A stretch of DNA of 64,000 nt, from contig SVAY01000006.1 in the NCBI GenBank assembly GCA_015059185.1, positions 14,070 through 78,069 of the forward strand. Reading direction: 5' to 3'. The notes under the pieces were generated by a model that searched no databases, was not told the origin of the DNA, and worked only from the letters and a program-made list of their open reading frames with translations. Origin of the DNA: Erysipelotrichaceae bacterium. GTDB lineage: Bacteria; Bacillota_I; Bacilli_A; RFN20; CAG-826. The position numbers and the translations under genes were made by a program. Position 1 is the first letter of the stretch, and every line of letters starts with the position of its first letter. Shown one piece after another: positions 6,635 through 60,656 of the stretch.

Positions 6635-6711
6635 TTTAGTTAGTAGATAGATATAGCGACTAATCTTTTTTTATTAATGGGAGGTAAATTATTATATTTT
6701 TTCACCCATTA

Positions 6712-6744
6712 AACATATAAAAAAGGTGTCTAAATAGACACCTT
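6712..6744 (-). terminator. intrinsic terminator of upp
   Basis: 10-bp stem AAGGTGTCTA/TAGACACCTT followed by a U-run on the minus strand. Confidence 0.7.
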
Positions 6745-6765
6745 AATTAATAATATTCCTTAATA

Positions 6766-7425: not shown

Positions 7426-7514
7426 ATTTTTACCTCTTAAAATAATTCTACATAAATAGGTACAAATAATAAATGTTTATTTTCTTAAAATAATAATTAG
7501 ACTAAAATAGTGAT

Positions 7515-8051: not shown

Positions 8052-8077
8052 TATCTATTAATTAATCATAAAAATAT

Positions 8078-8110
8078 ATAAAAAGGATGGGTCAAGCCCA
8101 TCCATTTTAT
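8078..8110. terminator. bidirectional terminator shared by pyrR (+) and pyrP (-)
   Basis: GGATGGG-TCAAG-CCCATCC hairpin flanked by an A-run and a T-run. Confidence 0.7.
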
Positions 8111-8129
8111 GTTTATAAAACTCAATTAC

Positions 8130-9542: not shown

Positions 9543-9569
9543 ATTTCTTTCTCCTTTTTTCGTTTAGTC

Positions 9570-9703
9570 TAATAAAAACGCCTAGTCGACATCGACCAGG
9601 CGCATAGTATACACTTCACTTGAGTTGTTCTAGCATCTTGTCGATATCTCGTATCGCCTTAAAGACCGTATATATAATAGTAGTATTACTCTTAGCTTGT
9701 CAA
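9570..9703 (-). promoter_or_regulatory. pyrP promoter (TTGACA-18-TATTAT at 9703-9674) and leader carrying an intrinsic terminator (hairpin 9579-9602 plus U-run) about 30 nt upstream of the RBS; candidate attenuator
   Basis: Hexamers and the 11-bp GC-rich stem CGCCUGGUCGA/UCGACUAGGCG followed by UUUUUAUU were read from the sequence; there is no room for a promoter downstream of the hairpin. Confidence 0.45.
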
Positions 9704-9759
9704 ACTCTTTTTGAAAGAATTTTTTACTCAATTTTTTACAGATTAGAAAAATGTCTTTT

Positions 9760-10095
9760 TTACTGATTTGAACTACTAGTTGTGATTCCTGCTTCAATAA
9801 ATAATGAGAAATATCTTACTATTCCCCACGCTAACATTAAAGAAGCAATAGAGATACCTGCAATCGAGGGCCATTTCACCCTTGTTCCAAATAGTCCGAC
9901 TATCCCTAATATAATAGCAACCGCTGCCATAATCATAGTGATAACAGCAAAAGCTAAACCTAAAAATGGAAGAATAGATAAATAGCCAGGTAATAAAGAT
10001 AATATAGATATAACAAAAGATATAACGGCAAATGGTAATCCCCATTTATGACTATTATTAACTTCTACTACTTCTTGAGTTTGTTCTTCGTTCAT
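9760..10095 (-). CDS. small hydrophobic membrane protein, function unknown
   Basis: 111 aa with three predicted TM segments; overlaps the 3' end of the upstream aminotransferase gene. Confidence 0.5.
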   Translation of the reverse strand: MNEEQTQEVVEVNNSHKWGLPFAVISFVISILSLLPGYLSILPFLGLAFAVITMIMAAVAIILGIVGLFGTRVKWPSIAGISIASLMLAWGIVRYFSLFIEAGITTSSSNQ

Positions 10096-12608: not shown

Positions 12609-12676
12609 ACGAGTAACCTCCTTATCATTTAATACTCAAACGGGAATATATTCAATACTTCTTTATTAAAGAAATA

Positions 12677-14287
<1,611 letters not shown>

Positions 14288-16066
14288 TTACTCCACGGTC
14301 ACACTTTTAGCAAGGTTTCGTGGTTTATCAACATTTAGACCTTTAGAAATTGAAACATAATATGCTAGATAAAAAGCAACGATAGAGACTGCAACACTAG
14401 AAAGATAATAAGCATAATCCTTCACAATAATCGTATCCTCTTTTCTAGAAAGCTTTTGGGTAGCGATAGTATAAACAGTTGCGCCGCGTGCTTTCACTTC
14501 TTCAATATTTCCTCTCATGCTAGAAGCAGTAACTGTGTCGGTAATAAAAACGATAACTGGTGTTCCTGGTTCAATTAACGCGATTGGGCCATGTTTAAGT
14601 TCTCCTCCAGGAATAGCTTCCGAATGGATATAACTAACTTCTTTTAGTTTTAAAGATGCTTCAAGTGATAAGAAATAGTCATAACTTCTACCTAAATAGA
14701 AGATGTTAGTTTTGTCTTTTAATTCATCTGCAACATTCATAATGATTGGCTTATAGTTATCCCTAATATCTTTAACAATTTCAATAGAGTCTTTTAGATC
14801 TTTTATTGTTTTCTTATCGTTTTGAAGCGCACTTGAAAGAAGTGAAAGCAAAGTCACCTGAGCAACATATGCTTTTGTAGAAGCAACTGATACTTCAATA
14901 CCTGCATGCAACAAAAGCGAATACATTGCATTTCTATCTAAAGTAGACCCACCAGTATTAGTGATAATTAAATTCTTAAGATTATGTTCTTTAATGATTT
15001 TTAGGCAGTGAATTAAGTCCGCCGTTTCTCCCGATTGAGAAATCATAATAATGAACGGTCTTTCTCCTGGATAAGTAGGATGGAAGGCCCATTCAGACGC
15101 AATAAATCTACTTGCAGATTTCCCATAGTATTCAAAAAATCTTCCACCTACTAATCCTGAGTGATAAGAAGTTCCACAAGCAATAAAAATGATATGATCA
15201 GATTCGTTTAAATCTTTGATAAGGTGGGGATCAAACTGGTATTCATCATTTTTAAAATATTCATTAATCAAGTTATTAACAACAGAAGGTATTTCTTCAA
15301 TTTCCTTAAGCATATAATGTGGATAACCTTTTAGGTCATGAGATATAGTCTCAATATCTTTATGTATCTTTTCTTTATTGACCTTCTCCCCTTCTTGGTC
15401 ATAAACCTCAACTGAATCATTAGAAATAACTGTATATTCGTTATCTTCAAGTTCGATAAAGTTATTGGTCAAACTAATCATCGGAGAAGCGTCACTTGCA
15501 ATTAAGTTATATCCTTCGCCGAGTCCAATAACTAAAGGTGAAGACTTTTTTAAAGCATATAAAACATTTTCATCATCACTCGTAAAGAAGGTGATTGCAA
15601 AACTACCCTTAAGCAATGACATCACTTTTCTAATTGCACTGATGACATCGTAATCTTTTAAATAGAAGTATTCTAATAAGTTAGAAGCAATTTCTGAATC
15701 AGTTTCACCAACAAATTCGTAGCCTTTATCCACTAAAAATTCTTTTAATTCCTTATAATTTTCAATTACGCCATTATGGACTAAACAGATTTTTTTACGA
15801 AAAGAAAGATGAGGATGGGTATTGTTGATACTGGGAACACCATGTGTTGCCCAGCGGGTATGTCCAATCATCACATTTGTTTCTATGTGGCTAGGAACAA
15901 AAGAGAATAGGTGTTCGACACTACCTACGTCTTTATAGATTTTAATGCCATCACTAAGATAAGCAATACCAGCGGAATCATATCCACGGTAATCTAAAAT
16001 CTTTAAGCCTTTTTCGACATAATTACGAGGATCTTTTAATCCAATTGAGCCAACAATTCCACACAT
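14288..16066 (-). CDS. glmS: glutamine--fructose-6-phosphate aminotransferase
   Basis: Starts MCGIVG, has two SIS domains and ends KSVTVE, as GlmS does. Confidence 0.85.
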   Translation of the reverse strand: MCGIVGSIGLKDPRNYVEKGLKILDYRGYDSAGIAYLSDGIKIYKDVGSVEHLFSFVPSHIETNVMIGHTRWATHGVPSINNTHPHLSFRKKICLVHNGVIENYKELKEFLVDKGYEFVGETDSEIASNLLEYFYLKDYDVISAIRKVMSLLKGSFAITFFTSDDENVLYALKKSSPLVIGLGEGYNLIASDASPMISLTNNFIELEDNEYTVISNDSVEVYDQEGEKVNKEKIHKDIETISHDLKGYPHYMLKEIEEIPSVVNNLINEYFKNDEYQFDPHLIKDLNESDHIIFIACGTSYHSGLVGGRFFEYYGKSASRFIASEWAFHPTYPGERPFIIMISQSGETADLIHCLKIIKEHNLKNLIITNTGGSTLDRNAMYSLLLHAGIEVSVASTKAYVAQVTLLSLLSSALQNDKKTIKDLKDSIEIVKDIRDNYKPIIMNVADELKDKTNIFYLGRSYDYFLSLEASLKLKEVSYIHSEAIPGGELKHGPIALIEPGTPVIVFITDTVTASSMRGNIEEVKARGATVYTIATQKLSRKEDTIIVKDYAYYLSSVAVSIVAFYLAYYVSISKGLNVDKPRNLAKSVTVE

Positions 16067-36783: not shown

Positions 36784-39096
36784 TTATGCTATCGTTGGCC
36801 AATTGCCACCAGTGATACGATAACCTTGTTTATCCCAAGCTAGTTCTGTTACTAGAAGTGGATATTGGTAGAGTTTTTCTTCCTCTTCCTTCTCACTCAC
36901 TCCATTAGGGAGTTCAACGGCAATGGCTCCTTCAGGACCAATCACACTATTAGCATAGCAATAACATTTGTTATATAGTCCTGCACTACTATCAACGAAT
37001 CTTCCAACCTTATGATTCTTTGAATATTCTAGAACTGTCGCAGAAGCAATAGACTTTGTGATGATGCTGGTGCTCGTAGAAACACCAACAAATCCACCAG
37101 TATTTAATGTCATATCTGCTAAGGCGGAATTATTACCCATATCCACTTTACCAGCTGATAAGGAGTTAGAAATATTACCTTTATTAATAGCGGCAAATAA
37201 TCCCATTGTAGAATCTGCCTCAACTCCGTCTCTAAATAAGTAGCCTTTAATTAAGCAGGCATTAACAACACCTTTTTCTTCATTAACCCCAATAAGTCCT
37301 CCAGCAGTAGCGGGATAATTGGTTCTTGTTCTGAGGTTATAATGACCCTCTTCATAATCTTCATATGAAGTCTCGATATAGGAGTTAATGACATTACCGT
37401 TATTAACTGCAATCAAGCCACCAAATGTGAGAGTTGATTCAAAGCTATAATGAATCATCTTTTGAATCGCATCTACCTTACCTAAAACTGCAGAATGAAT
37501 AACCTTTCCATTATTGGTAGCCACAAGACCTCCAAATGTCATATGGTCTGTACTATAAGTATCTTTCGCAGTTTGCACTTGTTCGCCAGTAATAGTCTGG
37601 GTGATATCATTCTTTAAAACACAGTTAGAAATCGTACCATTATTCTCTCCGACAAAGCCACTGGCTCTGGTGGTTAAAACCGCTTCTAATTTTCCAGAAA
37701 TGATTGAATCATAACCATATTGGAAACGATCAGCGTAAGTAAATGAGACATTATCTTCAACAGTACAGTTTCTAATGCTTCCTTTATTATTCGCAGCATA
37801 TAAACCAAATAATTGATTATAACTACTTCTTGTTCCAGCGGAAGTTAAAGTCGCATTAATCACTGCATCTTCTAAATTGACATTATCTAGATATGCCCCT
37901 TGTTCAATGGTGTTCACTAATAATGCAGCACTGATATTTCCATCACGAGGAACATGATTAAAGTCGGCATGAACTTTACCAGATATAATGGCTGTAAAGT
38001 CTTTAAATGTAATATTTGATAATGAACCAGTTAATGTCTTAATCCAACCAATGTTTAAAACGGCTGGAGTTGAATAGTTAACAGTAAATTCTTTAATGGC
38101 ATGATTCTTCCCATCGATATGAGATTTCACTTCGTTAATCACTTCTAATGCTTCTGATTCAAAAGAAATATCGTTTTTTAAGTAATAATAGCCTGTGCTA
38201 GATAAAGCATATAAGAATTGTTCTTTAGTGGAGATAGCACTGACAAGGTTCCAATCTAAATGCACTTTGATATCTTTATCGATAATATAGTTATCATCAT
38301 ATTCCTTGCTACTGCTACCACCTTTGATTTCATCATGCATATAAACCCTAGTTAACAACCAATATTTATCTGGGTCAGGATTCTTAGTAGCATAGTCATC
38401 CGTGAGCTGCTTTTTGAAATCAGCAATGGTTGAACCCACATCAACTTTAATCGTCTGTTGTTTATAAGTTTCACGGTTATCAGTATAAACGTAAACATTA
38501 TAGTAAGTGATCTCTTCAAACTTGGCTACCAAGGTAATATTCTTAGGGGCACTAGTAGGTAAAGTGTCAATCGCTACTCCATCAAGAGTCCAACCTAAGA
38601 AACGATATCCTTCTCGAGTGACAGCAGGTAGTTTATCACTGCTCTTTATATTATATGTCTCAATCTTATTATCGAATTTATCCCCTTCTTTGATACCTTG
38701 ATAAGTGATGGTGTATTCAATTGGTAAATAATGAAGGGTAACTTTACGAACAAGTGTTCCGGAATCATCTTTAACAGTAGGAGCAAAGTTCACACTATAT
38801 TGCACTTTTTCAAGACTTCCATAATCAAATATGGAGGCAAAGCTTTCATCGTTATCATTGATGGCAGAATATAAACCTTTATATGTATAATAGTCTCTTT
38901 TTATGGCCTCTGGTTCTTCAAGTGCCGCTAGTTGAGATTTCCAAGTATCATAATCGTCAATATTGACACGGAGAACATATCGATCATCGACTTCATTATA
39001 AAAAGAGATGATGTTAGTAGATGTATCTCCTCCGCATGAGGCTAGAGACAACACCATAAAAGCACTGCTTAGAAAAATTAATCCTTTTTTATTCAT
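36784..39096 (-). CDS. large surface lipoprotein with an InlB B-repeat (Listeria-Bacteroides repeat) and multiple GLUG-motif repeats
   Basis: Lipobox LSLASC; EGYRFLGWTLDG hallmark; repeated (F/A)GGL(I/V)AxN..G motifs; the start (MNKKGLIF at 39096) is uncertain because the RBS is weak. Confidence 0.6.
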   Translation of the reverse strand: MNKKGLIFLSSAFMVLSLASCGGDTSTNIISFYNEVDDRYVLRVNIDDYDTWKSQLAALEEPEAIKRDYYTYKGLYSAINDNDESFASIFDYGSLEKVQYSVNFAPTVKDDSGTLVRKVTLHYLPIEYTITYQGIKEGDKFDNKIETYNIKSSDKLPAVTREGYRFLGWTLDGVAIDTLPTSAPKNITLVAKFEEITYYNVYVYTDNRETYKQQTIKVDVGSTIADFKKQLTDDYATKNPDPDKYWLLTRVYMHDEIKGGSSSKEYDDNYIIDKDIKVHLDWNLVSAISTKEQFLYALSSTGYYYLKNDISFESEALEVINEVKSHIDGKNHAIKEFTVNYSTPAVLNIGWIKTLTGSLSNITFKDFTAIISGKVHADFNHVPRDGNISAALLVNTIEQGAYLDNVNLEDAVINATLTSAGTRSSYNQLFGLYAANNKGSIRNCTVEDNVSFTYADRFQYGYDSIISGKLEAVLTTRASGFVGENNGTISNCVLKNDITQTITGEQVQTAKDTYSTDHMTFGGLVATNNGKVIHSAVLGKVDAIQKMIHYSFESTLTFGGLIAVNNGNVINSYIETSYEDYEEGHYNLRTRTNYPATAGGLIGVNEEKGVVNACLIKGYLFRDGVEADSTMGLFAAINKGNISNSLSAGKVDMGNNSALADMTLNTGGFVGVSTSTSIITKSIASATVLEYSKNHKVGRFVDSSAGLYNKCYCYANSVIGPEGAIAVELPNGVSEKEEEEKLYQYPLLVTELAWDKQGYRITGGNWPTIA

Positions 39097-39186
39097 AACT
39101 GTCTCTAAAAATATGATACATGCTAAAAGAGTAATCAAAAAGTATTATTTATAACAAAAGTCCCGCTTCATCCGCGGGACTAAGTA

Positions 39187-39756
39187 TTAACCAAATATTG
39201 GAGTATTGCCGTCAAACGCAACAATATTTGCGCCGCTTACCACTTTAATTCCCATGGCGTTAAGTAATTCTCTACCACCTTGGAAGCTCTTTTCAATTGT
39301 GGCACATACACCGACACAATTCGCGCCACCTTGCTTAATAATCTTGATTAATCCAATTGCGGCATTGCCCTTAGCTAGGAAATCATCCACTATTAAGATA
39401 TTTTCATTTGGTAAGATGTATTTCTTGCTGACTGTAACTGTACTAACAGTACCTCTCGTGAAACTTCTTACTTCTTCACTATACACATCTTCATCAACAA
39501 TTTTTGATTTACTCTTTTTTGCAAACACCATATTAACATCTAAGATAGAAGCAACCGCGTAAGCAATTGGAATGCCACTTGTCTCTAATGTTAAAACTTT
39601 ATCAATTCTTGTATCTTTAAATTGATCAACAAAATATCTTGCTAATTCATTAGTGATACTTGGGTTCACTTGATGATTAACGAAAGAATCAACTTTAATG
39701 ATTTCTCCATCAAGTATCTTTCCATATTTACTAATTGCTTCTTCAATAATTTTCAT
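39187..39756 (-). CDS. xpt: xanthine phosphoribosyltransferase
   Basis: 189 aa Xpt-type PRT (ILIVDDFLAKGNA); RBS GAGGT. Confidence 0.8.
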   Translation of the reverse strand: MKIIEEAISKYGKILDGEIIKVDSFVNHQVNPSITNELARYFVDQFKDTRIDKVLTLETSGIPIAYAVASILDVNMVFAKKSKSKIVDEDVYSEEVRSFTRGTVSTVTVSKKYILPNENILIVDDFLAKGNAAIGLIKIIKQGGANCVGVCATIEKSFQGGRELLNAMGIKVVSGANIVAFDGNTPIFG

Positions 39757-39839
39757 TCTCGTTTACCTCGAGTATATTATAAAAAAACAATTTATTAATT
39801 TATAGACTATTTCTATAATAATAGGCGAGGACTATTAAT

Positions 39840-40355
39840 ATGGATTTAAATAAATATATTGCTATTAGAGAAAACTGGCCAAAGGAAGGTATCTCATTCA
39901 AAGACATCACTCCATTAACCCAAGACCCAGCGGCATTTAAGGAAGCAGTTGAAAGAATGGCGGAACCATTTAAAGGCTTAGGCATCACTAAAGTGTTATG
40001 TGCTGACGCTAGAGGTTTTATCTTTGGTGGACCAGTTGCACTTATCTTAGGTGCTGGTATGTCAATTGCGAGAAAACCAAATAAATTACCATATGTCGCT
40101 TATAGTGAATCATATGACTTAGAATATGGAAGCAATACTCTTGAAGTTGCACCAGGTGCAGTTATTAGAGGTGATAAAGTACTTGTTGTCGATGACTTAC
40201 TTGCTACCGGAGGAAGCGCTATCGCATTAACTAAACTTGCTGAAAGAGCAGGCGGCGAAGTTGTTGGCTATTCCGTCTTAGTGGAATTAACTGGATTAAA
40301 AGCAAGAAACAAACTTAAAGCTCCTACTCATTCTCTAATTCAATACGAATTCTAA
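39840..40355 (+). CDS. apt: adenine phosphoribosyltransferase
   Basis: 171 aa Apt sequence (VLVVDDLLATGGS). Confidence 0.85.
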   Translation: MDLNKYIAIRENWPKEGISFKDITPLTQDPAAFKEAVERMAEPFKGLGITKVLCADARGFIFGGPVALILGAGMSIARKPNKLPYVAYSESYDLEYGSNTLEVAPGAVIRGDKVLVVDDLLATGGSAIALTKLAERAGGEVVGYSVLVELTGLKARNKLKAPTHSLIQYEF

Positions 40356-40363
40356 TTAATACT

Positions 40364-40396
40364 AAAAAAGGATGACCATCGAAGTCATCCTTTTCT
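40364..40396. terminator. bidirectional terminator after apt and the OYE-type reductase gene
   Basis: GGATGAC-CATCGAA-GTCATCC hairpin with an A-run and a T-run. Confidence 0.65.
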
Positions 40397-40408
40397 TATG
40401 CTTATATC

Positions 40409-42460
40409 TTAGATTTTCATCGCTACTTCATAGGCACGCCAGATAACACTTCTTAAATTGCCTACTTGTAAACAGTCACCAACGAGATAGACATTCTTTC
40501 CTTTATTCACTAAAGGAGTAGGAATATAGCCGGTAGAAGAGATAACAGAATCAACTTTTATTTCTTCATCACCTTTTTCGCTAGTAACAATAATTGAACC
40601 ATCTTTCACTTCTTTTAATTTAGTAGAAAGATAAACAGGTACTTTTTTATAAGCAAAATATTCTCTTAAATATGATGAGTTAGCTAAGCATACTCCTTTT
40701 TGAGCAATAAGATCATCTTTCATTTCGATGATGATTGGCTTCTTACCTTGAAGTTCTAATTCATAAGCGATTTCTGAGCCGGTTAAGCCTCCACCAATAA
40801 CGGCGACAGTCTTGCCCACTTCTTTACCATTAAGATAGTCACACGCTTCAATCATTCTTTCCTTACCTGGAACATTTAAGATACGAGCTTTACTACCGGT
40901 AGCGATAATAACTAGTTCTCCTTTAAAGGCATCAAGAGACTTAATCTCACTATGATATTTAACTTCAATAGCAAGTTTTTCCATTTGATAACGATACCAA
41001 TTAAGGAGTTCTCTAAGTTTACCTTTATATGATTCACTACTTGCAGGGATGAATGTTCCACCAAGTTTATCACTCTTTTCGTAAATGATTGGACGATGCC
41101 CACGGAGTTTTAATACCCTAGCCGCTTCCATACCACCGATTCCACCACCGACAATATGAACAGTTTTAGGATGCTTAGTAGGAACAATTTTATGCTTCTT
41201 CCACTGCATCATTTCGGCATTCACTGCACAACGAGCAAGATGTAAGGAATCGCTAAGCGCTTGATCATTAGGTACCCCTTTATAATGACACATATTGAAA
41301 CAGCCATTATGACATAAGATACATGGTCTTATTTCTTTTTCTTCATCATTTAATACTTTGGTGAACCATTCAGGATCTGCGAGGAAATTACGCGCAAATC
41401 CTACACCATCAAGCTTTCCTTCTTTTACACTTTTAGCCCCGGCTTCAAGAGTCATTCTTCCTGCAGCCACTAAAGGAACATTCACATATGGTTTAAGTTC
41501 TTCAACATATGAAAGGTTACAGTTTTCTGGCATATAGATTGGTGGATGGGCCCAGTACCAAGCATCATATGTACCATTATCACAGTTAAGCATATCATAT
41601 CCTGCTTCTTCTAAGAGTTTAGCGGCCTTCTTTGATTCTTCAAAATCACGTCCCACTTCTACATATTCTTCTCCTGGGACAGCACCCTCTCTAAAACCTT
41701 TTGTCTTACTAACAACGGAATATCTTAATGAGACTGGGAAGTCTTCACCACACTCTTTCTTAATTGCTTTAACAATCTCAATAGCGAAGCGATATCTATT
41801 TTCTAAACTTCCTCCATATTCATCAGTTCTTTTATTAACATATTTTAGAGTGAATTGGTCTAATAAATATCCTTCATGGACTGCATGGATTTCAACGCCA
41901 TCAACACCTGCTTCTTTACAAAGCTTTGCGCTCTTAGCGAACGCTTGAATAAAGAATTCAATTTCTTTCTTCGTCATCTCTCTAGAAGGTAGACGGTCAC
42001 TCCATCTATTAGGAGAAGGAGAGGCACTAGCAGTAATCTTATCTAGATTCATCACTGGCTTAGCTAAGAAGTTTAATACTTTATTGTTATAAAGCATTTC
42101 CATCATGCTACTAACAGTAAAACTTCTACCAAATCCAGCAGTTAATTGAATAAAGAGTTTCGCTCCTGTCTTATGAAATTCAGGCATCCACTTCTTTAAA
42201 TCATTGAACATCTTTTTATTACGATAAAGCCACTGCCCAAACATCGGGTTATATACTGGTTGACATCCAGGAAGAACAAGACCGCAGTTATTTTTTGCAA
42301 CTTCCAATATGAACTTTGCACCTTCTTTATCAAAGTGGTTTTTCTCCATCCAACCGAATAAATCAGTACCACCCATGGAGGTCAAAACAATACGGTTTTT
42401 AATCTCAAGATTCCTAATCTTCCAAGGAGTTAATAATGGTTCTAATTCTTTTTTCATCAT
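40409..42460 (-). CDS. OYE-family FMN oxidoreductase fused to a Cys cluster and FAD/NAD(P)-binding domains (2-enoate reductase / 2,4-dienoyl-CoA reductase / TMADH-like architecture)
   Basis: N-terminal OYE motifs (KNRIVLTSMGG; HAVHEGYLLDQF), Cys cluster CILCHNGCFNMC...C, and two GxGxxG Rossmann motifs (VHIVGGGIGG; VAVIGGGLTG); ATGA overlap with the upstream gene. Confidence 0.7.
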   Translation of the reverse strand: MMKKELEPLLTPWKIRNLEIKNRIVLTSMGGTDLFGWMEKNHFDKEGAKFILEVAKNNCGLVLPGCQPVYNPMFGQWLYRNKKMFNDLKKWMPEFHKTGAKLFIQLTAGFGRSFTVSSMMEMLYNNKVLNFLAKPVMNLDKITASASPSPNRWSDRLPSREMTKKEIEFFIQAFAKSAKLCKEAGVDGVEIHAVHEGYLLDQFTLKYVNKRTDEYGGSLENRYRFAIEIVKAIKKECGEDFPVSLRYSVVSKTKGFREGAVPGEEYVEVGRDFEESKKAAKLLEEAGYDMLNCDNGTYDAWYWAHPPIYMPENCNLSYVEELKPYVNVPLVAAGRMTLEAGAKSVKEGKLDGVGFARNFLADPEWFTKVLNDEEKEIRPCILCHNGCFNMCHYKGVPNDQALSDSLHLARCAVNAEMMQWKKHKIVPTKHPKTVHIVGGGIGGMEAARVLKLRGHRPIIYEKSDKLGGTFIPASSESYKGKLRELLNWYRYQMEKLAIEVKYHSEIKSLDAFKGELVIIATGSKARILNVPGKERMIEACDYLNGKEVGKTVAVIGGGLTGSEIAYELELQGKKPIIIEMKDDLIAQKGVCLANSSYLREYFAYKKVPVYLSTKLKEVKDGSIIVTSEKGDEEIKVDSVISSTGYIPTPLVNKGKNVYLVGDCLQVGNLRSVIWRAYEVAMKI

Positions 42461-42903
42461 CAAACACCTACTTTCACAGTTCCGTCTTCAAGCACTTCAA
42501 TTGTGTCCCCAGTCTTTACATTATCTAAGAAGTCTTGACCGAGTCGATCAATAGCGATGACAGGGGAGTTTTCCCAAATCTTCGCTAAGACGATGCCAGA
42601 AGCAGCAAGTGAATCAATGGATTCCGAGAAGAGGAAACATGCTGGCGCAATACCCATTTGACATACTGTTTGAATAACTAATCCTCCAGTTGTACTACCA
42701 ATAGTGATCGGTAAACATAATGCTTTACCAGTAATATTGACGCCAAATAAGTCTTTATTATTTTGATCTGAGACTAATACTTCTTTCGCATTCTTTAATG
42801 CGCTTTTTTGGAATGAGGCAAGGGTATTAAAACCTTGATGAGACACGGCAGCTTCACCCTTATAATATCCGCCTGCAATCACGCGTCCTTTATATTCTTT
42901 CAT
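42460..42903 (-). CDS. AcnX (aconitase X) small swivel-domain subunit-like protein (DUF126)
   Basis: ~147 aa with a glycine-rich swivel region (GSTTGGLV); start at ATG 42903 after AAAGGAA (the track ORF begins at an upstream TTG). Confidence 0.55.
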   Translation of the reverse strand: MKEYKGRVIAGGYYKGEAAVSHQGFNTLASFQKSALKNAKEVLVSDQNNKDLFGVNITGKALCLPITIGSTTGGLVIQTVCQMGIAPACFLFSESIDSLAASGIVLAKIWENSPVIAIDRLGQDFLDNVKTGDTIEVLEDGTVKVGV

Positions 42904-42904
42904 A

Positions 42905-44200
42905 TTATTTAGATTCCTTTCCGACAACGAAATCTAATATTTCTTTATCTTTTGCATAACGAGCGAATGAATATGTTCTTAACTTATTTGAACTTGTATA
43001 AATTCGTCGTGATTTGGTGAGAGGATTATTGGTATACATAAGTGGACAAATAGTAGTTAATTTCACACCTGTCGCCATTAACTCTTGATACTTAGGAGTC
43101 TTCATAAATTTATCCTTAATATCAGGAGCGGTCGTTATGATTGTTCTCACCACTACTTTTTTACGCCCTGTTTCTTTTAACCCTTCTTTAATACGATCTG
43201 TCCAACTATTAAGTTGTTCAAATGTTAAATGTGGACAACCAATGAAGACGAGATTGCCTTTCTTCTCTGGTTTCTTCCACATAATTGGATAGCTGCGATA
43301 GACTCTTTCAATCTCTTCATCATCAATGACGTATTCTTTCGCATCAGGTAAGATTAATTTCTCACCATATTTCTTTGCTTCTGGAGTAAGTCCATCAATA
43401 TGATATAAGCCAACTGCTCCATTAGAGGCTGTCGCGGCTCCAAAGTCTTTTAGATAACCGATTGTTTTATCATCAAGTTTATTTCCAATAAGTTTATCTA
43501 ATCCAACGATATAAGGAACATCTTCCATGACCTTCATACCAATGGCAGATCCTAAAATTTGAGCTTCAGGAACATTCTTACATTTAATAATTACTTTCCA
43601 TTTCGCTTTTCTTCCTTCATCAGTGATAAAACCAAATTCTGGAACGAGTCCTAAGATGGAACCAAATAATTCAATCATTCCAGAATTACGATTACATCTT
43701 GCTCCTAGAACCGAGTTTGCAAACACTACCGCACTTGATTCGGCCCAAGAAAGAATATCTCCTTCTTTAGGCGTATTACCAATTTCTGGTAAATATGCTG
43801 CACATGAGAAAGCATTACTATCTTTAAGTCCCACTTTCTTCAACTGCTCTTCATACATTGCTTGCTTTGCATACATAATCTTTGAGAATACGAGTTTCTC
43901 AAGTGGATTACATTTAACGTTTTCATAATCAATTGGGCGAGGATCAACAGTGAACTTACCTTTAGTCTTAATTCCACTTTCAATTAATTGATCCATCGTT
44001 GAAAATAATGGTTTTAATAACTTAATACCAAAACTAGTTACTAAATGGCCATCATGATGAGTAACTTTAACTAACCTAGGTGCGCCAAAAATATCACCAA
44101 ACATCACGACTGTTTCCATGATCTTGGCCATGACTGGACCTTGACTTCCGTTCAGGATATCTCTTTGTTCCGAGGTTAATTCCATCTTTGGTTCATACAT
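42905..44200 (-). CDS. AcnX large catalytic subunit-like protein (DUF521)
   Basis: 431 aa; DUF521/AcnX type II large-subunit-like by motif recollection (several conserved Cys/Ser-rich blocks); RBS AAAGGAG. Confidence 0.55.
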   Translation of the reverse strand: MYEPKMELTSEQRDILNGSQGPVMAKIMETVVMFGDIFGAPRLVKVTHHDGHLVTSFGIKLLKPLFSTMDQLIESGIKTKGKFTVDPRPIDYENVKCNPLEKLVFSKIMYAKQAMYEEQLKKVGLKDSNAFSCAAYLPEIGNTPKEGDILSWAESSAVVFANSVLGARCNRNSGMIELFGSILGLVPEFGFITDEGRKAKWKVIIKCKNVPEAQILGSAIGMKVMEDVPYIVGLDKLIGNKLDDKTIGYLKDFGAATASNGAVGLYHIDGLTPEAKKYGEKLILPDAKEYVIDDEEIERVYRSYPIMWKKPEKKGNLVFIGCPHLTFEQLNSWTDRIKEGLKETGRKKVVVRTIITTAPDIKDKFMKTPKYQELMATGVKLTTICPLMYTNNPLTKSRRIYTSSNKLRTYSFARYAKDKEILDFVVGKESK

Positions 44201-44259
44201 ATGGAATTCTCCTTTATTGATAATTATATTGTAACACCCTATAAAATGAATTTATAACA

Positions 44260-44290
44260 CTAAAAAATCCCTCTATATTGTGAGGGATAT
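44260..44290 (-). terminator. tRNA-cluster terminator displaced from the tRNAs by the IS insertion
   Basis: ATCCCTC-TATATTG-TGAGGGAT hairpin followed by UUUUUU on the minus strand. Confidence 0.5.
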
Positions 44291-44349
44291 TTCAATCACT
44301 GTACTTACCCCAATTCATTGGACTAATATCCTCTGAACCGGCACCTATA

Positions 44350-45261
44350 TTATACATTACGTTGTAATAATTCGCATTTGTATTTCATTGGACTGTTTTT
44401 CAAGGCCACGATAATACGCTCCTCATTATAATATTTAATCCACTTATGAATTGCTTCACGTAACTGATTAATATTCTCATATCTCCATTCCTGACCATAG
44501 AATACTTCTTCCTTTAATCTTCCGAAGAAGTTCTCTGTTGGAGAATTATCTAAGCAATTGCCTTTCCTAGACATTGATTGAATCATTTGATGCTCTTCAA
44601 GGAAATCTTGATACCACTTTTGTTGATATTGCCAACCTTGATCAGAATGAATAATAGAACCAGGAAGATATGCTTTATATTTATCCTCTAACTGATGCAT
44701 CATTCTTTTGATTTGAAGCATATTTGGATGGATTGAGATGTCATATGAAACAATCTCGCGTGTATGGAAATCGATGATTGGAGAAAGGTATAGTTTGTCT
44801 TCTCCTATCCTAAATTGAGTAACATCAGTTCCAAATACTCTATATGGCTCTCCAACATCAAAATGACGCTTTATTACATTAGGTGCTTTTGACCCAACTT
44901 CTCCACGATAAGAACAGTATTTCTTTTTCTTAGGTTCCGCTGAAATATGATGCTCTTTCATAATTCTTGCCACTTTCTTTTCGTTGATATGAATACCTCT
45001 ATTGTTTAATTCAATCGTTATACGTGGATATCCATATTTTTTATAATGGCTATCGAAGATAGACTTTATTAGCTTGGCTAAATCATCATCCTTATGTTTT
45101 CTTTCTTCTCCATATTTTAAAACATCATAATAAGTAGATTTAGATAACTTTAAATATTTTAGAAGGACATCTAGTTTGATTCGGCCCTTGAGCTCATTAA
45201 CGATTTGTACCTTTTCCTCAATCGTTTGTCCTTCTTTAAAGCCAGGGCCAAGGATTTTTTT
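44350..45261 (-). CDS. IS3-family transposase OrfB (DDE integrase core), expressed as an OrfAB fusion by -1 frameshift at AAAAAAA (45255-45261)
   Basis: DDE core with HSDQG...NxxxESxFxxLKxE motifs; the reading frame stays open upstream back to the slippery heptamer. Confidence 0.75.
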   Translation of the reverse strand, partial: KKILGPGFKEGQTIEEKVQIVNELKGRIKLDVLLKYLKLSKSTYYDVLKYGEERKHKDDDLAKLIKSIFDSHYKKYGYPRITIELNNRGIHINEKKVARIMKEHHISAEPKKKKYCSYRGEVGSKAPNVIKRHFDVGEPYRVFGTDVTQFRIGEDKLYLSPIIDFHTREIVSYDISIHPNMLQIKRMMHQLEDKYKAYLPGSIIHSDQGWQYQQKWYQDFLEEHQMIQSMSRKGNCLDNSPTENFFGRLKEEVFYGQEWRYENINQLREAIHKWIKYYNEERIIVALKNSPMKYKCELLQRNV

Positions 45262-45740
45262 AATATTTCATTCTCATCTTCTAAATGTTTACATCTATCC
45301 TTCAATTCTTTATCTGCTAAAAACCTTTGACGGTCTTCATGAAGCATGTACTTTTTTCTGCCTCTAGAAATTTGGATCCCTTCTTCACCTTTTTCTTTAT
45401 ATTTTCTTACCCACTCACCGACAGAATCTGCATCAGGTGTTCCTACCTCAGCTGCTACCTGCCGAGCTGATTTTTTCCCGCTCAAAACCTCTTTAATTGC
45501 TGCTAATTTCTCTTCGCGAGTATAGATTCTTTCTTCTTGTTCATCAGTAAAAGGTTTTTCACCATGAATCTGATAAACCTTTGCCTTGTGTTTTAAGGCA
45601 CTTACATTAAATTTGTACTTTTGAGCTAACTTTGTCATAGGTACGCCATCATCGACGTATAGTTTGACAATTCTTAGCCATTCACTTGGCCGTCTTTCCA
45701 TAAAGAAAACCCCCTTAAATTGTACCGAATTTTGGTCCAA
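45171..45740 (-). CDS. IS3-family transposase OrfA (HTH + leucine-zipper)
   Basis: 189 aa with an HTH and a coiled-coil C-terminus, typical of OrfA. Confidence 0.75.
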   Translation of the reverse strand: MDQNSVQFKGVFFMERRPSEWLRIVKLYVDDGVPMTKLAQKYKFNVSALKHKAKVYQIHGEKPFTDEQEERIYTREEKLAAIKEVLSGKKSARQVAAEVGTPDADSVGEWVRKYKEKGEEGIQISRGRKKYMLHEDRQRFLADKELKDRCKHLEDENEILKKSLALALKKDKRLRKRYKSLMSSRAESN

Positions 45741-45765
45741 TAAACGGGGGTATTTTCAATCACTT

Positions 45766-45850
45766 TGGTGCGGCTAGCAGGAATCGAACCTGTACGGGTT
45801 GCCCCACTAGATCCTAAGTCTAGCGCGTCTGCCAGTTCCGCCATAGCCGC
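45766..45850 (-). tRNA. tRNA-Leu (anticodon TAG)
   Basis: Hand-folded 85-nt cloverleaf with long variable arm, anticodon loop CUUAGGA, encoded CCA. Confidence 0.8.
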
Positions 45851-45891
45851 AAATAGTTAACCCCTCTAAATAGAGGGGTATTTCTTTAAAT

Positions 45892-45967
45892 TGGTGCCGT
45901 CTATCGGAATCGAACCAACAACCTACTGATTACAAATCAGTTGCTCTGCCAATTGAGCTAAGACGGC
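45892..45967 (-). tRNA. tRNA-Thr (anticodon TGT)
   Basis: 76-nt cloverleaf, anticodon loop UUUGUAA, T-loop TTCGATT, encoded CCA. Confidence 0.75.
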
Positions 45968-45976
45968 ATTTCTTTT

Positions 45977-46051
45977 TGGTGGACACTACAGGGATCGAAC
46001 CTGTGACCTCTTCCGTGTGAAGGAAGCGTTCTCCCGCTGAACTAAGTGTCC
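45977..46051 (-). tRNA. tRNA-Val (anticodon CAC)
   Basis: 75-nt cloverleaf, anticodon loop UUCACAC, encoded CCA. Confidence 0.75.
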
Positions 46052-46162
46052 AATCGCTTATTAATACTACCAAACACTTTTCCTTTTTTCAATTGATAAG
46101 GCTGAGGTCGGGGGTTCTTATAAAAAATAAACCATGGAAGGTTTACTTTTTTAAAATCCATT

Positions 46163-46239
<77 letters not shown>

Positions 46240-46257
46240 AAATTTTGACGCTCAATT

Positions 46258-46286
46258 ACTATACAATACTAGTAATAATTTTGCAA
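46258..46286 (-). promoter_or_regulatory. promoter for tRNA-Ile (TTGCAA-17-TATAGT)
   Basis: Hexamers read from the sequence about 20 nt upstream of the mature tRNA 5' end. Confidence 0.4.
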
Positions 46287-46299
46287 TGTGATTTAAGAA

Positions 46300-46340
46300 T
46301 AATTTGGGGAAAGGCTTTTCACCTCTCCCCAATTGTTTCC
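46300..46340 (-). terminator. hairpin downstream of rpsI (GGGGAGAGG/CCUUUCCCC); weak U-tract
   Basis: 9-bp stem with one mismatch; the following tract is only moderately U-rich. Confidence 0.35.
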
Positions 46341-46365
46341 TAAATTTCGTAAACCTTGTTCTAAA

Positions 46366-46761
46366 TTAACGTTTAGAGAATTGTGGAGCTCTTCTAGCAG
46401 CTTTGAGACCGTATTTCTTACGTTCTTTCGCTCTAGGATCTCTTGTAACCATACCAGCGACTTTGAGAGTAGATCTATCAACACCAGCTTCAAGTAAAGC
46501 ACGTGTGATACCTAATCTGATAGCGCCTGTTTGACCTGTGAATCCTCCACCTTTAACTTGGGCTTCAACATCATATTTGGTGTCGGTACCAGTTAAGGTT
46601 AATGGTTGTTTTAGATCCATAACAAGGGTGGCATAAGGAATGTATTCATCAACAGGGCGACCATTGACTGTAATCTTTCCTTTACCTGGAGTAAGGAATA
46701 CTCTAGCGATAGAAGATTTTCTTCTACCAGTTCCGTAATAACGAGCTGTATCTTTTGCCAT
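46366..46761 (-). CDS. rpsI: 30S ribosomal protein S9
   Basis: 131 aa, ends ...RRAPQFSKR. Confidence 0.95.
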
Positions 46762-46775
46762 TTTACCTTACCTCC

Positions 46776-47216
46776 TTAGAGTTTGATTTCGAGAACTTCT
46801 GGTTTTTGAGCTTCATGCTTATGTTCTGGACCAGCATAGACGAATAATTTCTTTTCGATTTGTCTACCTAAACGGCCCTTTGGTAACATACCGTGAACAC
46901 TTCTTTCAATCATTTCGGTTGGGAAGTTTTTAAGCATTTCACCAGCGGTTCTTGTTCTTAATCCACCTGGGAAACCAGATGCATTGTAATATTTTTTGTT
47001 GTGAATTTTGTCACCACTTAAGCTGACTTTGTCGGCATTGATAACAATGACGTAATCACCACAGTCGACATTTGGAGTATAAATTGGTTTAACTTTACCA
47101 CTTAATACTTGAGCGACTTGTGTGCAAAGACGGCCTAAAGGTTTATCTGTGGCATCAACAACATACCACTTTCTTTGGATTTCGCTATTTTTTGCAATAG
47201 TAGTTTGACGTTGCAT
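46776..47216 (-). CDS. rplM: 50S ribosomal protein L13
   Basis: 146 aa typical L13 sequence. Confidence 0.95.
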   Translation of the reverse strand: MQRQTTIAKNSEIQRKWYVVDATDKPLGRLCTQVAQVLSGKVKPIYTPNVDCGDYVIVINADKVSLSGDKIHNKKYYNASGFPGGLRTRTAGEMLKNFPTEMIERSVHGMLPKGRLGRQIEKKLFVYAGPEHKHEAQKPEVLEIKL

Positions 47217-57858: not shown

Positions 57859-58041
57859 TTTTAGAATACAACTTTTTATATAAGTTGTTGAAGAGTTTTC
57901 TTATTTTCCTTTCTAAATTGGACAAATGACCATTTTTTGAAAAGATGTAAAGTTATCTTTACATAATTTTTTTCTCAAAATTGATGCTTTTTTATTTATT
58001 TTTATTTAATAAATGGATATTATTATGCAGTGGTGAATAAT

Positions 58042-59460
58042 ATGAAATATAACGTAGTACTCGTCGGAGCTGGTCCTGCTGGATATTTTGCAGCTTACGA
58101 ATTAACAAAAATCAACCCATCTTTAAAGGTGGCTTTAATCGACCGTGGTCATAGCATTGAGAAAAGAAGATGCCCAGTGCTTGAACACAGAATCCAAAAA
58201 TGCCCAATCGGCAAAGGTGGCAGCCTAGGAGAATGTGCTCCTGCATGTTCCATTACCAATGGTTTTGGTGGAGCAGGTGCTTATTCAGATGGTAAATTCA
58301 ACATTACAACTGAATTCGGTGGTTGGTTAACTGACTACATCAGTGATGAAGAATTATTAGACTTAATCAATTATGTTGATCAAATCAATCTTTCATTCGG
58401 TGCAACTGAAACCATCACTAATCCAAACACTCCTGAAGTCAAAGCTATTGAACTTAGAGCGATGTCTGCTGGACTCAAACTATTAAGAAGTAGAGTGAGG
58501 CATTTAGGTACAGAAGAAAACTTAAAGATCTTAACTAAAATCTCTAACTATTTAAGTGACAAGATTGATATGTACTTTGGAACAAAAGTTGAAGATATCA
58601 TTGTCGAAGATAATGTGGTTAAAGGTGTTGTCCTTCAAGATGGTACCAAGTTTGAAGCTGATTATGTGGCCTTAAGCGTTGGTAGAGAAGGAAGTAAGTG
58701 GCTCAATGAAATCTTAGAAAGACGCGGAGTCAAGATGAGCCAAACCCAAGTTGATTTAGGTGTTCGTGTCGAATGTCCTAACTTGATCATGGAAGAAATC
58801 AATAACACCTTATATGAAGGTAAATTCTTATACAAAACCTCAACTGGAAATACAGTGAGAACTTTCTGTTCCAATCCAGGTGGACACGTCGTTGTTGAAA
58901 ACTATGAAGGTGTTGTGAACGTTAATGGTCACTCCTATAACGATTCAAAACTCAGTAGTAACAACACCAACTTCGCTTTACTTGTTTCACATCACTTTAC
59001 TGAACCATTTAAAGAACCAAATGAATATGCCAAAAAGATCTCATCCCTTGCTAACCAATTAGCGTGTGGAGGCGTTATTGTTCAAAGATATGGCGATATC
59101 CTTTTAGGTAGAAGATCTACTGAGAAAAGAATCAAAGAAGGCTTTGTTAAACCAACATTAAAAGAAGCGGTTCCTGGCGACTTAACTCTTTGCATTCCTC
59201 AAAAAACTATGCAATCCATCATCGAAATGATTCAAGTCTTAGATAAAATCACTCCAGGTATTGCTACAGAACACACCTTATTATATGGAGTAGAAGCTAA
59301 ATATTATTCTGCTCACCCAAACATCGATGAAAAACTTGAAGTGAGAGAAATTAAAAATCTCTATGTCGGTGGAGATGGCGCAGGTCTCACAAGAGGCTTA
59401 GCCCAAGCCGGAGCTTCAGGTGTATATATCGCAAGAAATATTGCGGGAAAGGTCAAATAA
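58042..59460 (+). CDS. FAD-dependent dehydrogenase-like flavoprotein (COG2509-type) with a Cys-rich insert
   Basis: N-terminal GAGPAG dinucleotide-binding motif; CPVLEHRIQKCPIGKGGSLGECAPAC cluster; start at ATG 58042 after GGTGA. Confidence 0.55.
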   Translation: MKYNVVLVGAGPAGYFAAYELTKINPSLKVALIDRGHSIEKRRCPVLEHRIQKCPIGKGGSLGECAPACSITNGFGGAGAYSDGKFNITTEFGGWLTDYISDEELLDLINYVDQINLSFGATETITNPNTPEVKAIELRAMSAGLKLLRSRVRHLGTEENLKILTKISNYLSDKIDMYFGTKVEDIIVEDNVVKGVVLQDGTKFEADYVALSVGREGSKWLNEILERRGVKMSQTQVDLGVRVECPNLIMEEINNTLYEGKFLYKTSTGNTVRTFCSNPGGHVVVENYEGVVNVNGHSYNDSKLSSNNTNFALLVSHHFTEPFKEPNEYAKKISSLANQLACGGVIVQRYGDILLGRRSTEKRIKEGFVKPTLKEAVPGDLTLCIPQKTMQSIIEMIQVLDKITPGIATEHTLLYGVEAKYYSAHPNIDEKLEVREIKNLYVGGDGAGLTRGLAQAGASGVYIARNIAGKVK

Positions 59461-59462
59461 CT

Positions 59463-60656
59463 ATGTCTAGATACGTAGGAACAACAAGTAGAGGCATTAG
59501 ATGCCCAATCATCAAAGAAGGTGACAAGTTAGAAGACATCGTCACTGAAAGTGTTTTATTAGCAAGTAAAGAGGAAGGTTTCCCAATTAAGGATAAGGAT
59601 GTTATCGCAATTACCGAAAGTATCGTTGCCCGTAGTCAAGGAAACTACTGCACAATCGATGATATTGGAAATGATATCAAAGCTAAATTCAATAGCGACA
59701 CCATCGGAGTTATCTTCCCAATCTTAAGTAGAAATAGATTCTCCATCTTACTTAAAGGTATCGCTAGAGGAGTAAAGAAAATTGTCTTAATGCTCTCCTA
59801 TCCAAGTGATGAAGTTGGTAATGCATTATTAACTTATGATGATTTAGATGAAAAGGGCGTTAACCCATATAGTGATGTTCTCTCTTTAGAAAGATATAGA
59901 CAATTATTCGGTTATCGTTTACACGAATTCACCGGTGTTGATTATATCGAATATTATCAAGAATTGATTAGAGGCGAAGGATGTGAAGTTGAAGTCATCT
60001 TCTCTAACAACGCTAGAGCAATCCTTAAATACACTCCATACGTCTTAGCATGTGATATCCATACAAGAAGAAGAACTAAGAGAATCCTTAAAGAAGTAGG
60101 CGCTAAAATCGTCCTCGGCCTTGATGACATTATGACTTCTTCTATTAAAGGAAGCGGATTCAACAAAGACTACGGCTTACTCGGTAGTAACAAGGCTACT
60201 GAAGATAAAGTCAAACTCTTCCCAAGAGATTCCCAATGGTTAGTAGAAGAAATCCAAGCTAGGATCTTAAAAGCAACTGGTAAACACGTTGAAGTTATGG
60301 TCTATGGTGATGGAGCCTTCAAAGATCCACAAGGAAAGATTTGGGAACTCGCTGACCCAGTGGTCTCCCCATTCCATACCTCAGGTTTAGTTGGCACTCC
60401 AAACGAACTCAAACTCAAATACTTAGCGGATAACGAATTCAAAAACCTCACTGGTGAAGAATTAAAAGCTGCTATTGAAAAGAGAATCAAAGAGAAAGAC
60501 GCTAACCTCAAAGGTACAATGGCAACTCAAGGTACTACCCCACGTCAATTAACAGACTTAATCGGTTCCTTATGTGACTTAACATCTGGTTCCGGTGATA
60601 AGGGTACACCAGTCATCTTAGTCCAAGGTTACTTCGATAACTACACTAACGACTAA
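59463..60656 (+). CDS. CofE-superfamily (F420-0:gamma-glutamyl ligase fold) protein with a central insertion
   Basis: CofE-like blocks IKEGDKLEDIV, VIAITESIVARSQGN, YGDGAFKDPQGKIWELADP and GSGDKGTPVILVQGY. Confidence 0.5.
   Translation: MSRYVGTTSRGIRCPIIKEGDKLEDIVTESVLLASKEEGFPIKDKDVIAITESIVARSQGNYCTIDDIGNDIKAKFNSDTIGVIFPILSRNRFSILLKGIARGVKKIVLMLSYPSDEVGNALLTYDDLDEKGVNPYSDVLSLERYRQLFGYRLHEFTGVDYIEYYQELIRGEGCEVEVIFSNNARAILKYTPYVLACDIHTRRRTKRILKEVGAKIVLGLDDIMTSSIKGSGFNKDYGLLGSNKATEDKVKLFPRDSQWLVEEIQARILKATGKHVEVMVYGDGAFKDPQGKIWELADPVVSPFHTSGLVGTPNELKLKYLADNEFKNLTGEELKAAIEKRIKEKDANLKGTMATQGTTPRQLTDLIGSLCDLTSGSGDKGTPVILVQGYFDNYTND

Follow-up and report, generated by a model that had tools for sequence, protein, structure and literature searches.

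The stretch of DNA analysed here (the window, 64,000 nucleotides of an Erysipelotrichaceae bacterium, NCBI GenBank assembly GCA_015059185.1, contig SVAY01000006.1, positions 14,070 to 78,069 of the forward strand) carries on its minus strand three tightly packed genes encoding the two subunits of an AcnX type II enzyme and a large flavoenzyme with an iron-sulphur (Fe-S) cluster motif. The same association recurs in many genomes, and the best available reading of it is a dehydration by AcnX followed by an ene-reduction by the flavoenzyme. The genes, abbreviated L, S and RED where gene orders are given, and the signals around them are the following.

42905..44200, minus strand: AcnX-L, large subunit, 431 aa (MBE6141787.1)
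42460..42903, minus strand: AcnX-S, swivel subunit (domain 4), ATG at 42903 and stop at 42460, 147 aa (MBE6141786.1)
40409..42460, minus strand: Fe-S flavoenzyme (reductase), 683 aa from the first ATG (MBE6141785.1)
44228..44236, minus strand: extended -10 promoter element TGTTACAAT, from aligned upstream regions of orthologues
44267..44288, minus strand: terminator-like hairpin ATCCCTCACAATATAGAGGGAT followed by a T-run, former tRNA-Leu terminator
40364..40396, both strands (14 and 11 pairs): bidirectional intrinsic terminator that closes the operon and is common to the convergent apt gene

The three accessions are exact proteins of an Erysipelotrichaceae metagenome-assembled genome (MAG). 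A sequence-only reading of this DNA had placed three minus-strand open reading frames (ORFs) in 40409-44200, with a 1-nt gap between the first two, and both points hold, the L/S junction being TAA-t-ATG. The ATGA overlap that it reported at the S/reductase junction does not exist as such, since the actual letters are gtTTGATGATGaaa, so that the stop codon shares one nucleotide (TGATG) with the first ATG or four with a TTG at 42463, but the packing is equally tight. The size of 684 aa given for the reductase is correct if translation starts at this TTG, and not if it starts at the first ATG (683 aa) or as annotated by NCBI (682 aa). No minus-strand terminator was found inside the three-gene unit in a terminator scan. 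Upstream of AcnX-L, a consensus promoter scan reported no promoter, because the -35 is weak. However, TGTTACAAT overlaps a perfect TATAAT at 44228..44223, is followed by a strong ribosome-binding site (AAAGGAG, at ~44214..44208), and has aligned counterparts ahead of the orthologous AcnX-L genes in two related loci (TGCTAAAAT in L168 and TGCTAGAAT in L006). In this alignment the predicted extended -10 is conserved among the three loci, which bears out the earlier proposal that the operon has its own promoter just downstream of a displaced tRNA terminator. An Rfam scan (E<=1, 39000-47000) for a riboswitch or leader RNA returned four tRNAs and sub-threshold noise only.

The assignment of the first two ORFs to the AcnX family, already made in the sequence-only reading, is now backed by Pfam, by sequence matches in the PDB and by predicted fold, all of which agree. 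AcnX-L matches Pfam AcnX (PF04412, E=3.8e-89, 299.6 bits against a gathering score of 31.5) and AcnX-S matches AcnX_swivel_put (PF01989, E=4.3e-11, 42.9 bits against a gathering score of 27). The closest solved relatives are the two chains of the T. kodakarensis AcnX, 7cnr_A (8e-36) and 7cnr_B (6.3e-07), the hydroxyproline dehydratase of Agrobacterium being the next PDB match (~1e-21). An AlphaFold model of AcnX-L (pLDDT 87.8, pTM 0.89), predicted to adopt the fold of aconitase domains 1-2-3, retrieved 7cnr_A first in Foldseek (E=8.9e-27, TM 0.77/0.85), with further matches to 7cnp_A (the Agrobacterium enzyme), isopropylmalate isomerase and aconitases. On this sequence and model evidence, L and S, which are encoded by separate tandem genes, are AcnX type II subunits. 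A natural AcnX fusion, with L preceding S, is present in the representative library (P0130, 603 aa); its order is the reverse of that in fused type I enzymes, in which domain 4 comes first. In AcnX-L, C133, C322 and C385 align with Cys110, Cys283 and Cys342 of the T. kodakarensis enzyme and are the predicted ligands of a [4Fe-4S] cluster. The corresponding cysteines (sites A, 1 and B; PMC8184944) hold such a cluster in A. pernix phosphomevalonate dehydratase (PMDh) (PMC10040528). AcnX-L has no C-x-C, which would supply the site-C cysteine of [2Fe-2S] enzymes (it reads ICPLMY, position +2 not being a Cys). Together, the three aligned cysteines and the missing C-x-C point to a cluster pattern of the [4Fe-4S] type. 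E154, S155, S156, K406 and Y410 are the predicted catalytic residues and ligands of the substrate carboxylate and C3-hydroxyl, and this set, with the Ser-Thr of the small subunit, matches the carboxylate/C3-OH ligands of both solved AcnX enzymes. AcnX-S contains an invariant DQNN(K/P)DL motif and the catalytic-serine motif IGSTTGG (residues 68-74), whose GSTTG aligns with GSTVG (Ser62-Thr63-Val64) in T. kodakarensis. C133, C322, C385, E154, S155, S156, K406, Y410 and IGSTTGG are invariant in 81 sequences and in distant members.

The third protein matches Pfam Oxidored_FMN (1.2e-52) and Pyr_redox_2 (1.3e-27), and its closest PDB matches are 2-naphthoyl-CoA reductase (NCR; 6qkg, 7e-53) and FadH (1ps9, 4e-43). 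It consists of an N-terminal OYE-type flavin mononucleotide (FMN) barrel, a four-Cys [4Fe-4S] motif and C-terminal flavin adenine dinucleotide (FAD) and NAD(P)H domains. By these sequence criteria it is an OYE/[4Fe-4S]/FAD flavoenzyme of FadH-type architecture. The OYE FMN motifs and two GxGxxG folds seen earlier were recovered, the latter as GGGIGG (438-443, FAD domain) and GGGLTG (556-561, NAD(P)H domain). The CxxCxxxCxxxC cluster was only partly recovered: the spacing is present (C380-x2-C383-x3-C387-x3-C391) and C380, C383 and C387 align with the cluster motif of FadH, but the fourth ligand aligns to C411 (ARCAVN) rather than C391. In common with the FadH/2-enoate reductase/BaiCD/BilR/NCR family, which is widespread in anaerobic Firmicutes, the protein has the OYE barrel, the C-x2-C-x3-C...C motif and both nucleotide-binding domains. 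Unlike FadH and NCR, it retains an H-x-x-H pair, in an OYE-type HAVHEGY at residues 192-198; in OYE-type enzymes this pair binds the electron-withdrawing group. Identity with BaiCD or with the bilirubin reductase BilR was rejected, the scores (339 and 334 bits) being well below the NCBIfam cut-offs (825 and 750, respectively).

Evidence that these enzymes belong together comes from comparative genomics. Scanning one genome per species with a profile built from a 10-sequence alignment yielded 600 AcnX candidates, 595 of which were confirmed, i.e. there are at least 595 species-level loci. The counts that follow refer to the best 80 of these, all from MAGs of gut or digester Bacilli and Clostridia, with 59-89% identity; 72 are informative and eight are too short to judge. 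L and S are adjacent in every locus long enough to show it. An orthologous reductase (55-85% identity) directly adjoins the AcnX pair in 30/80 loci, in the order RED-L-S in 25, divergently in three and as L-S-RED, the order of the window, in two; in two further loci it lies 1-3 kb away. In 12/80 loci the position directly upstream of the pair is occupied by a 755-aa paralogous Fe-S flavoenzyme (26-29% identity), and in 2/80 a third, ~705-aa paralogue is one gene away. An Fe-S flavoenzyme thus lies directly beside the AcnX pair in 42/72 informative loci (58%), with at least three reductase lineages represented. By chance this would be expected in at most ~2%, assuming up to 20 such genes placed randomly among ~2000. 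Since the excess is maintained in three gene orders and with at least three reductase lineages, the adjacency is not accidental. In the reverse direction, 32 of 80 metagenome contigs with a 74-84%-identical reductase have AcnX alongside. The triad is also found in cultured Clostridium carboxidivorans P7 (a TetR gene, then RED-L-S), in a Thermoanaerobacter sp. (a PAS/sigma54 activator, then RED-L-S), in a Clostridium sp. (RED-L-S) and in Capillibacterium thermochitinicola (L-S-RED), and it is retained in a 1.06-Mb genome (L055). Its co-conservation as a neighbourhood, proposed earlier as a check, therefore extends to many genomes and survives rearrangement.

Flanking genes differ wholly from locus to locus, and 87-92%-identical relatives carry the triad at different genomic places, so the module relocates as a unit. 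All-against-all clustering of the neighbours in 80 + 80 loci revealed no recurrent metabolic gene, transporter or regulator as a conserved third partner, and the AcnX pair plus reductase therefore appears to be the whole module. Four apparent recurrent clusters (c10, c12, c22 and c11) were discarded as artefacts of antisense ORFs in GC-rich contigs.

Several sporadic neighbours deserve mention in their own right. A transporter of the GPH family (glycoside/glucuronide-type) is a near neighbour of the AcnX pair, at most one or two genes away, in only four Clostridia loci (L053, L066, L073 and L079), in one of which (L066) it adjoins a GH3 glycosidase. In one Bacilli lineage (L002, L008, L010 and L043) genes for NuoE-like and NuoF-like proteins and an [FeFe]-hydrogenase (HydABC-type, bifurcating; ~9900-14100 in L002) come after the pair on its own strand, with the reductase divergent upstream. 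This could be a redox link or a coincidence. For the transporter as for the hydrogenase, four loci were judged too few to interpret. Finally, RED-L-S stands directly beside bioY-bioD-bioA and a divergent bioB in a single Clostridium sp. (L173, 3100-6800).

The archaeal PMDh (type IIb; T. kodakarensis 7CNR/7CNS and A. pernix) resembles the enzyme of the window in its two tandem-gene subunits, its fold, its three-Cys sites A, 1 and B, its Glu-Ser-Ser, Lys and Tyr set and the catalytic Ser-Thr of its small subunit. It differs in that AcnX-L is bacterial and only 28% identical to it, has His52 within a 3-residue insertion, and is partnered with a reductase. Moreover, the phosphate-binding Asn53 and Asn79 of T. 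kodakarensis are replaced by Leu61, which is variable, and Asp86, which is invariant. A role of the window's AcnX in the mevalonate (MVA) pathway, as a mevalonate-5-phosphate dehydratase, is accordingly highly improbable, even though its closest solved relative is the T. kodakarensis enzyme, the three-Cys pattern is the same, and UniRef automatically names some relatives 'phosphomevalonate dehydratase large subunit-like'. A reductase would be of no use to the MVA route. In addition, no UbiD/UbiX-type (anhydromevalonate-phosphate) decarboxylase, mevalonate kinase or other MVA gene was found in the 64-kb window, as the sequence-only reading had already noted for the vicinity, or in ~170 related loci (whole genomes were not searched). 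Mevalonate-5-phosphate was thus rejected as a substrate on the grounds of both residues and context.

His52, Thr55, Ser56, Gly58 and Asp86 are invariant in the 81 AcnX-L sequences and nearly fully kept in members from Clostridium, Thermoanaerobacter, Bacillus and Rhodococcus that are only 45-54% identical, which defines a coherent clade, probably with one common substrate. Because the invariant His52, Thr55, Ser56 and Asp86 occupy the phosphate-binding position of the archaeal enzyme, an anionic distal group is disfavoured, and the residue pattern suggests instead that this part of the substrate is polar or cationic. Only three stretches of the AlphaFold model are of low confidence, residues 51-60, 81-90 and 121-130 (window ~44050-44021, 43960-43931 and 43840-43811, respectively). 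The first carries His52, Thr55 and Ser56, the second Asp86, and the third lies just before Cys133, which suggests that ordering of these loops requires the presence of the small subunit, the cluster or the substrate.

Alternatively, the substrate could be a β-hydroxy-α-amino acid (hydroxyproline, hydroxypipecolate, hydroxyaspartate or threonine-like), whose enamine or imine would be reduced by the flavoenzyme to the dehydroxylated amino acid. One of the two characterized AcnX activities is indeed a dehydration of this kind, of cis-3-hydroxy-L-proline to Δ1-pyrroline-2-carboxylate, followed by a reductase (PMC8184944). The hydroxyproline dehydratase concerned (LhpI, Agrobacterium) has the family and fold of the window's enzyme, hands its product to a reductase, and has Thr as the third residue of the small-subunit motif (Thr72, which contacts the ring nitrogen), as in the S-T-T of AcnX-S, where the archaeal enzyme has Val. 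Invariant Asp86 could bind an ammonium group, and relatives of the reductase such as trimethylamine dehydrogenase (TMADH) and histamine dehydrogenase act on C-N bonds. However, AcnX-L scores 146 bits with the NCBIfam LhpI equivalog (NF051439), for which the cut-off is 700, and AcnX-S 27 bits. The cysteine pattern is of the [4Fe-4S] rather than the C-x-C [2Fe-2S] type, and Asp203, the ring-nitrogen ligand in Agrobacterium, corresponds to Thr55. Hydroxyproline or other amino-acid catabolic genes are never conserved neighbours in the ~170 loci, and the partner is an Fe-S flavoenzyme that retains the H-x-x-H/Tyr ene-reductase signature of OYE rather than a pyrroline-2-carboxylate (Pyr2C) reductase. 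An amino-acid substrate is therefore unlikely, and cis-3-hydroxy-L-proline in particular is very probably not used, in view of the LhpI score, the missing C-x-C, the Asp203 replacement and the gene context.

Dehydration of a hydroxy acid followed by ene-reduction is thus preferred, because of the identity of AcnX and of the flavoenzyme, their co-conservation, the missing MVA genes and the chemistries of the two families. According to this model, the three genes, which form one transcription unit, would encode a self-contained two-step module. L and S would assemble into a heterodimeric, oxygen-sensitive [4Fe-4S] hydro-lyase, as expected from the chemistry of the family, which would hold a 3-hydroxy-carboxylic acid by its carboxylate and C3-hydroxyl. 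The serine of the small subunit would then remove the C2 proton while the C3-OH leaves on the unique iron, generating an (E)-2-enoate in a reversible step. The flavoenzyme would take a hydride from NAD(P)H at FAD and send the electrons via its [4Fe-4S] cluster to FMN, which would reduce the activated C=C of the enoate to give the saturated acid. The net outcome would be a reductive β-dehydroxylation independent of coenzyme A (CoA), which could serve strict fermentative anaerobes as an NAD(P)H sink or for salvage of the saturated product. That a single three-gene module performs a reversible dehydration of a 3-hydroxy-carboxylate to the 2-enoate and then its NAD(P)H-driven reduction is, in our judgement, an evenly balanced proposition.

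The logic of such a pair is familiar from dehydratases and enoyl-reductases dependent on CoA or acyl carrier protein (ACP), where water is eliminated from a hydroxy acid derivative and the double bond is then reduced. Unlike these systems (reversal of β-oxidation, FabZ/FabI, CaiD/CaiA, phenyllactate dehydratase/FldZ), the AcnX loci have no CoA or ACP genes: neighbour clustering found neither a CoA ligase or transferase nor an ACP among the related loci. Since AcnX enzymes act on free carboxylates, this argues for a route that would be independent of thioesters. An oxygen-sensitive reductive branch would also fit with the occurrence of the reductase only in anaerobes, and with the fact that the reductase has been swapped while the AcnX site has remained invariant. 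In the aerobes Rhodococcus opacus PD630, Rhodococcus sp. ZPP and Bacillus sp. 1P02SD, a LysR gene is divergent from L-S and there is no reductase, as expected if the reductive step, being O2-sensitive, is an addition made by anaerobes.

Several observations weigh against such a coupled pathway. No Fe-S flavoenzyme is present within 3-8 kb in 26/72 informative AcnX loci, and on the AcnX tree loci with and without the linkage are intermingled. Conversely, at least 20 metagenome contigs with a 74-78%-identical reductase have no AcnX within 3 kb or more, although such contigs are redundant and not independent samples. With the partner missing nearby on both sides, the linkage is facultative, and the reductase might also, or instead, act on other compounds. 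No conserved transporter, riboswitch or regulator that would name a substrate emerged from the clustering of loci or the Rfam scan of the window, and '2-enoate reductase' (EC 1.3.1.31) is an automated name only (NCBI, JGI). The functions proposed for the AcnX subclass and the reductase clade are predictions, and sequence cannot tell a free acid from a thioester as the substrate of the reductase.

The first of these points could also be taken to mean that the enzymes are neighbours with no metabolite in common, either co-regulated or co-inherited as O2-sensitive Fe-S proteins, or with the reductase acting as electron donor to, or repair partner of, the AcnX cluster. That about one-third of AcnX loci and many reductase loci have no partner nearby would be accounted for in this way, and Clostridia carry Fe-S flavoenzymes in multiple copies, with a promiscuous distribution (PMC11574389). 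Nevertheless, the abutting start and stop codons, an adjacency far above that expected by chance, and its persistence through three gene orders, different flanks and at least three reductase lineages are difficult to reconcile with uncoupled functions, and aerobes, which would need cluster repair most, are precisely those without the reductase. Uncoupled neighbours are therefore quite unlikely.

The direction of the AcnX reaction is a separate issue. AcnX reactions are reversible and PMDh was assayed in the hydration direction (PMC10040528), so an enoate, e.g. a dietary or plant unsaturated acid, might be the physiological substrate and electron acceptor, with AcnX serving chiefly to buffer or divert it by hydration and, in aerobes, to open oxidative degradation via the 3-hydroxy acid. 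RED-L-S, the commonest gene order, would be in keeping with this, as would the Rhodococcus loci, in which L+S with LysR lie beside an MHS transporter, an α/β hydrolase and a short-chain dehydrogenase/reductase (SDR); hydratase, dehydrogenase and hydrolase would there make up a degradative sequence. This scenario, which has a small chance of being correct, is a variant of dehydration and ene-reduction rather than a true alternative. Furthermore, only two genomes, closely related to each other, provide the Rhodococcus context, regulators intervene between the genes there, and no transporter is conserved in anaerobes. The Rhodococcus loci are of interest in themselves as a substrate lead, though no more than a lead. 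On plasmid pRoPD630_1 of R. opacus PD630 (L167) and in Rhodococcus sp. ZPP (L174), L+S reside within a catabolic island (1-15000) that includes a ShiA-like MHS carboxylate transporter (363 bits), a PcaD/HsaD-like α/β hydrolase, an SDR, an F420-type LLM oxidoreductase and mhpA/C/B-like 3-hydroxyphenylpropionate genes. Other candidate substrates that were considered, namely citrate/aconitate (leading to tricarballylate), malate, 3-hydroxybutyrate, carnitine, 3-aryl-3-hydroxypropionates, pimelate precursors and sugar acids, have anecdotal contextual support at most and none is endorsed.

How does dehydration coupled to ene-reduction compare with what has been published? Two AcnX activities are known; type IIb is the archaeal PMDh, in which Cys sites A, 1 and B bind the [4Fe-4S] cluster, while the functions of the bacterial types IIc-f are listed as unknown (PMC8184944; PMC10040528). 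A genomic survey of Fe-S flavoenzymes reports no systematic linkage to an AcnX dehydratase, and neither its text nor its supplement refers to aconitase or DUF521 (PMC7371122). The great majority of such flavoenzymes in gut anaerobes are orphans, but the few that have been solved (for bile acids, bilirubin, isoflavones and steroids) matter for host physiology (PMC11574389). No publication on the function of this AcnX clade, on that of the reductase clade or on their pairing was found in the searchable literature, in line with the statement in the sequence-only reading that no described pathway is known to use this pairing. Every component is from a known enzyme family, and it is the functions of the clades and their pairing that are undescribed in the literature searched.

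The pairing joins two pools of orphans, the bacterial AcnX subclasses and the Fe-S flavoenzymes of gut anaerobes, and provides a concrete chemical hypothesis for both, with a substrate class narrowed to 3-hydroxy acids/2-enoates with a non-anionic distal group. We would advance only tentatively, as a possibility somewhat short of even, the broader idea that an AcnX clade (type IIc-f) and a dedicated flavoenzyme constitute an unrecognized thioester-independent reductive dehydroxylation (3-hydroxy acid to 2-enoate to saturated acid), a fermentative electron sink on a common acid of host, dietary or microbial origin, in hundreds of anaerobic Firmicutes species from the gut and the environment, including some with reduced genomes of ~1 Mb. 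If the coupling is true, a thioester-free dehydratase/ene-reductase route would be added to anaerobic metabolism, naming the acid would give both an orphan AcnX subclass and an orphan flavoenzyme clade a function, and a known gut transformation with no assigned enzyme could be explained. The pairing would not astonish a specialist, but it is a solid lead, unusually clean, widespread and directly testable. Cultured and tractable hosts, with dedicated regulators, are among the carriers (C. carboxidivorans P7, Thermoanaerobacter, Capillibacterium, R. opacus PD630 and Bacillus).

Upstream of the operon lie four tRNA genes and a mobile element.

44306..45752, minus strand: IS3-family insertion sequence (IS) (NCBIfam transpos_IS3 NF033516, 206.6 bits against a cut-off of 160)

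The element is intact, with imperfect 24-nt terminal inverted repeats (44306-44329 and 45729-45752) and orfA/orfB genes that have an A7 slippery site for a -1 frameshift, the orfB frame being open from 45267. In a 96%-identical strain (L168), tRNA-Leu(TAG) is followed by the hairpin, the operon begins 124 nt after the tRNA, there is no IS, and the same apt, xpt and pyruvate kinase (pyk) genes are found downstream of the operon. The insertion in the window is therefore recent and strain-specific, having separated tRNA-Leu from its terminator, the hairpin at 44267..44288; a 74%-similar hairpin is found between tRNA-Thr and tRNA-Leu. It follows that the element carries no information about the operon, and the suggestion in the earlier reading that its proximity marks the operon as accessory has to be abandoned. 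An 11-nt direct repeat, AGTGATTGAAA, occurs on both sides of the element (44289-44305 and 45753-45765) and is longer than the target duplications of IS3 elements, usually 3-5 bp. The element had no match in a plasmid collection.

Two other features of the window are worth recording. Directly after the gene of an FAD-dependent protein (Pyr_redox_2/FAD-depend_C) is one similar to CofE, the F420-0:γ-glutamyl ligase (PF01996, 2.7e-54; the two together at 58030-60656, plus strand), in a host that is a low-GC Firmicute, in which F420 synthesis is not expected. Lastly, between the pyruvate kinase and xpt/apt genes, at 36784-39138 on the minus strand, is encoded a predicted lipoprotein of 784 aa with a Listeria-Bacteroides repeat and a GLUG motif, which is probably a surface protein.

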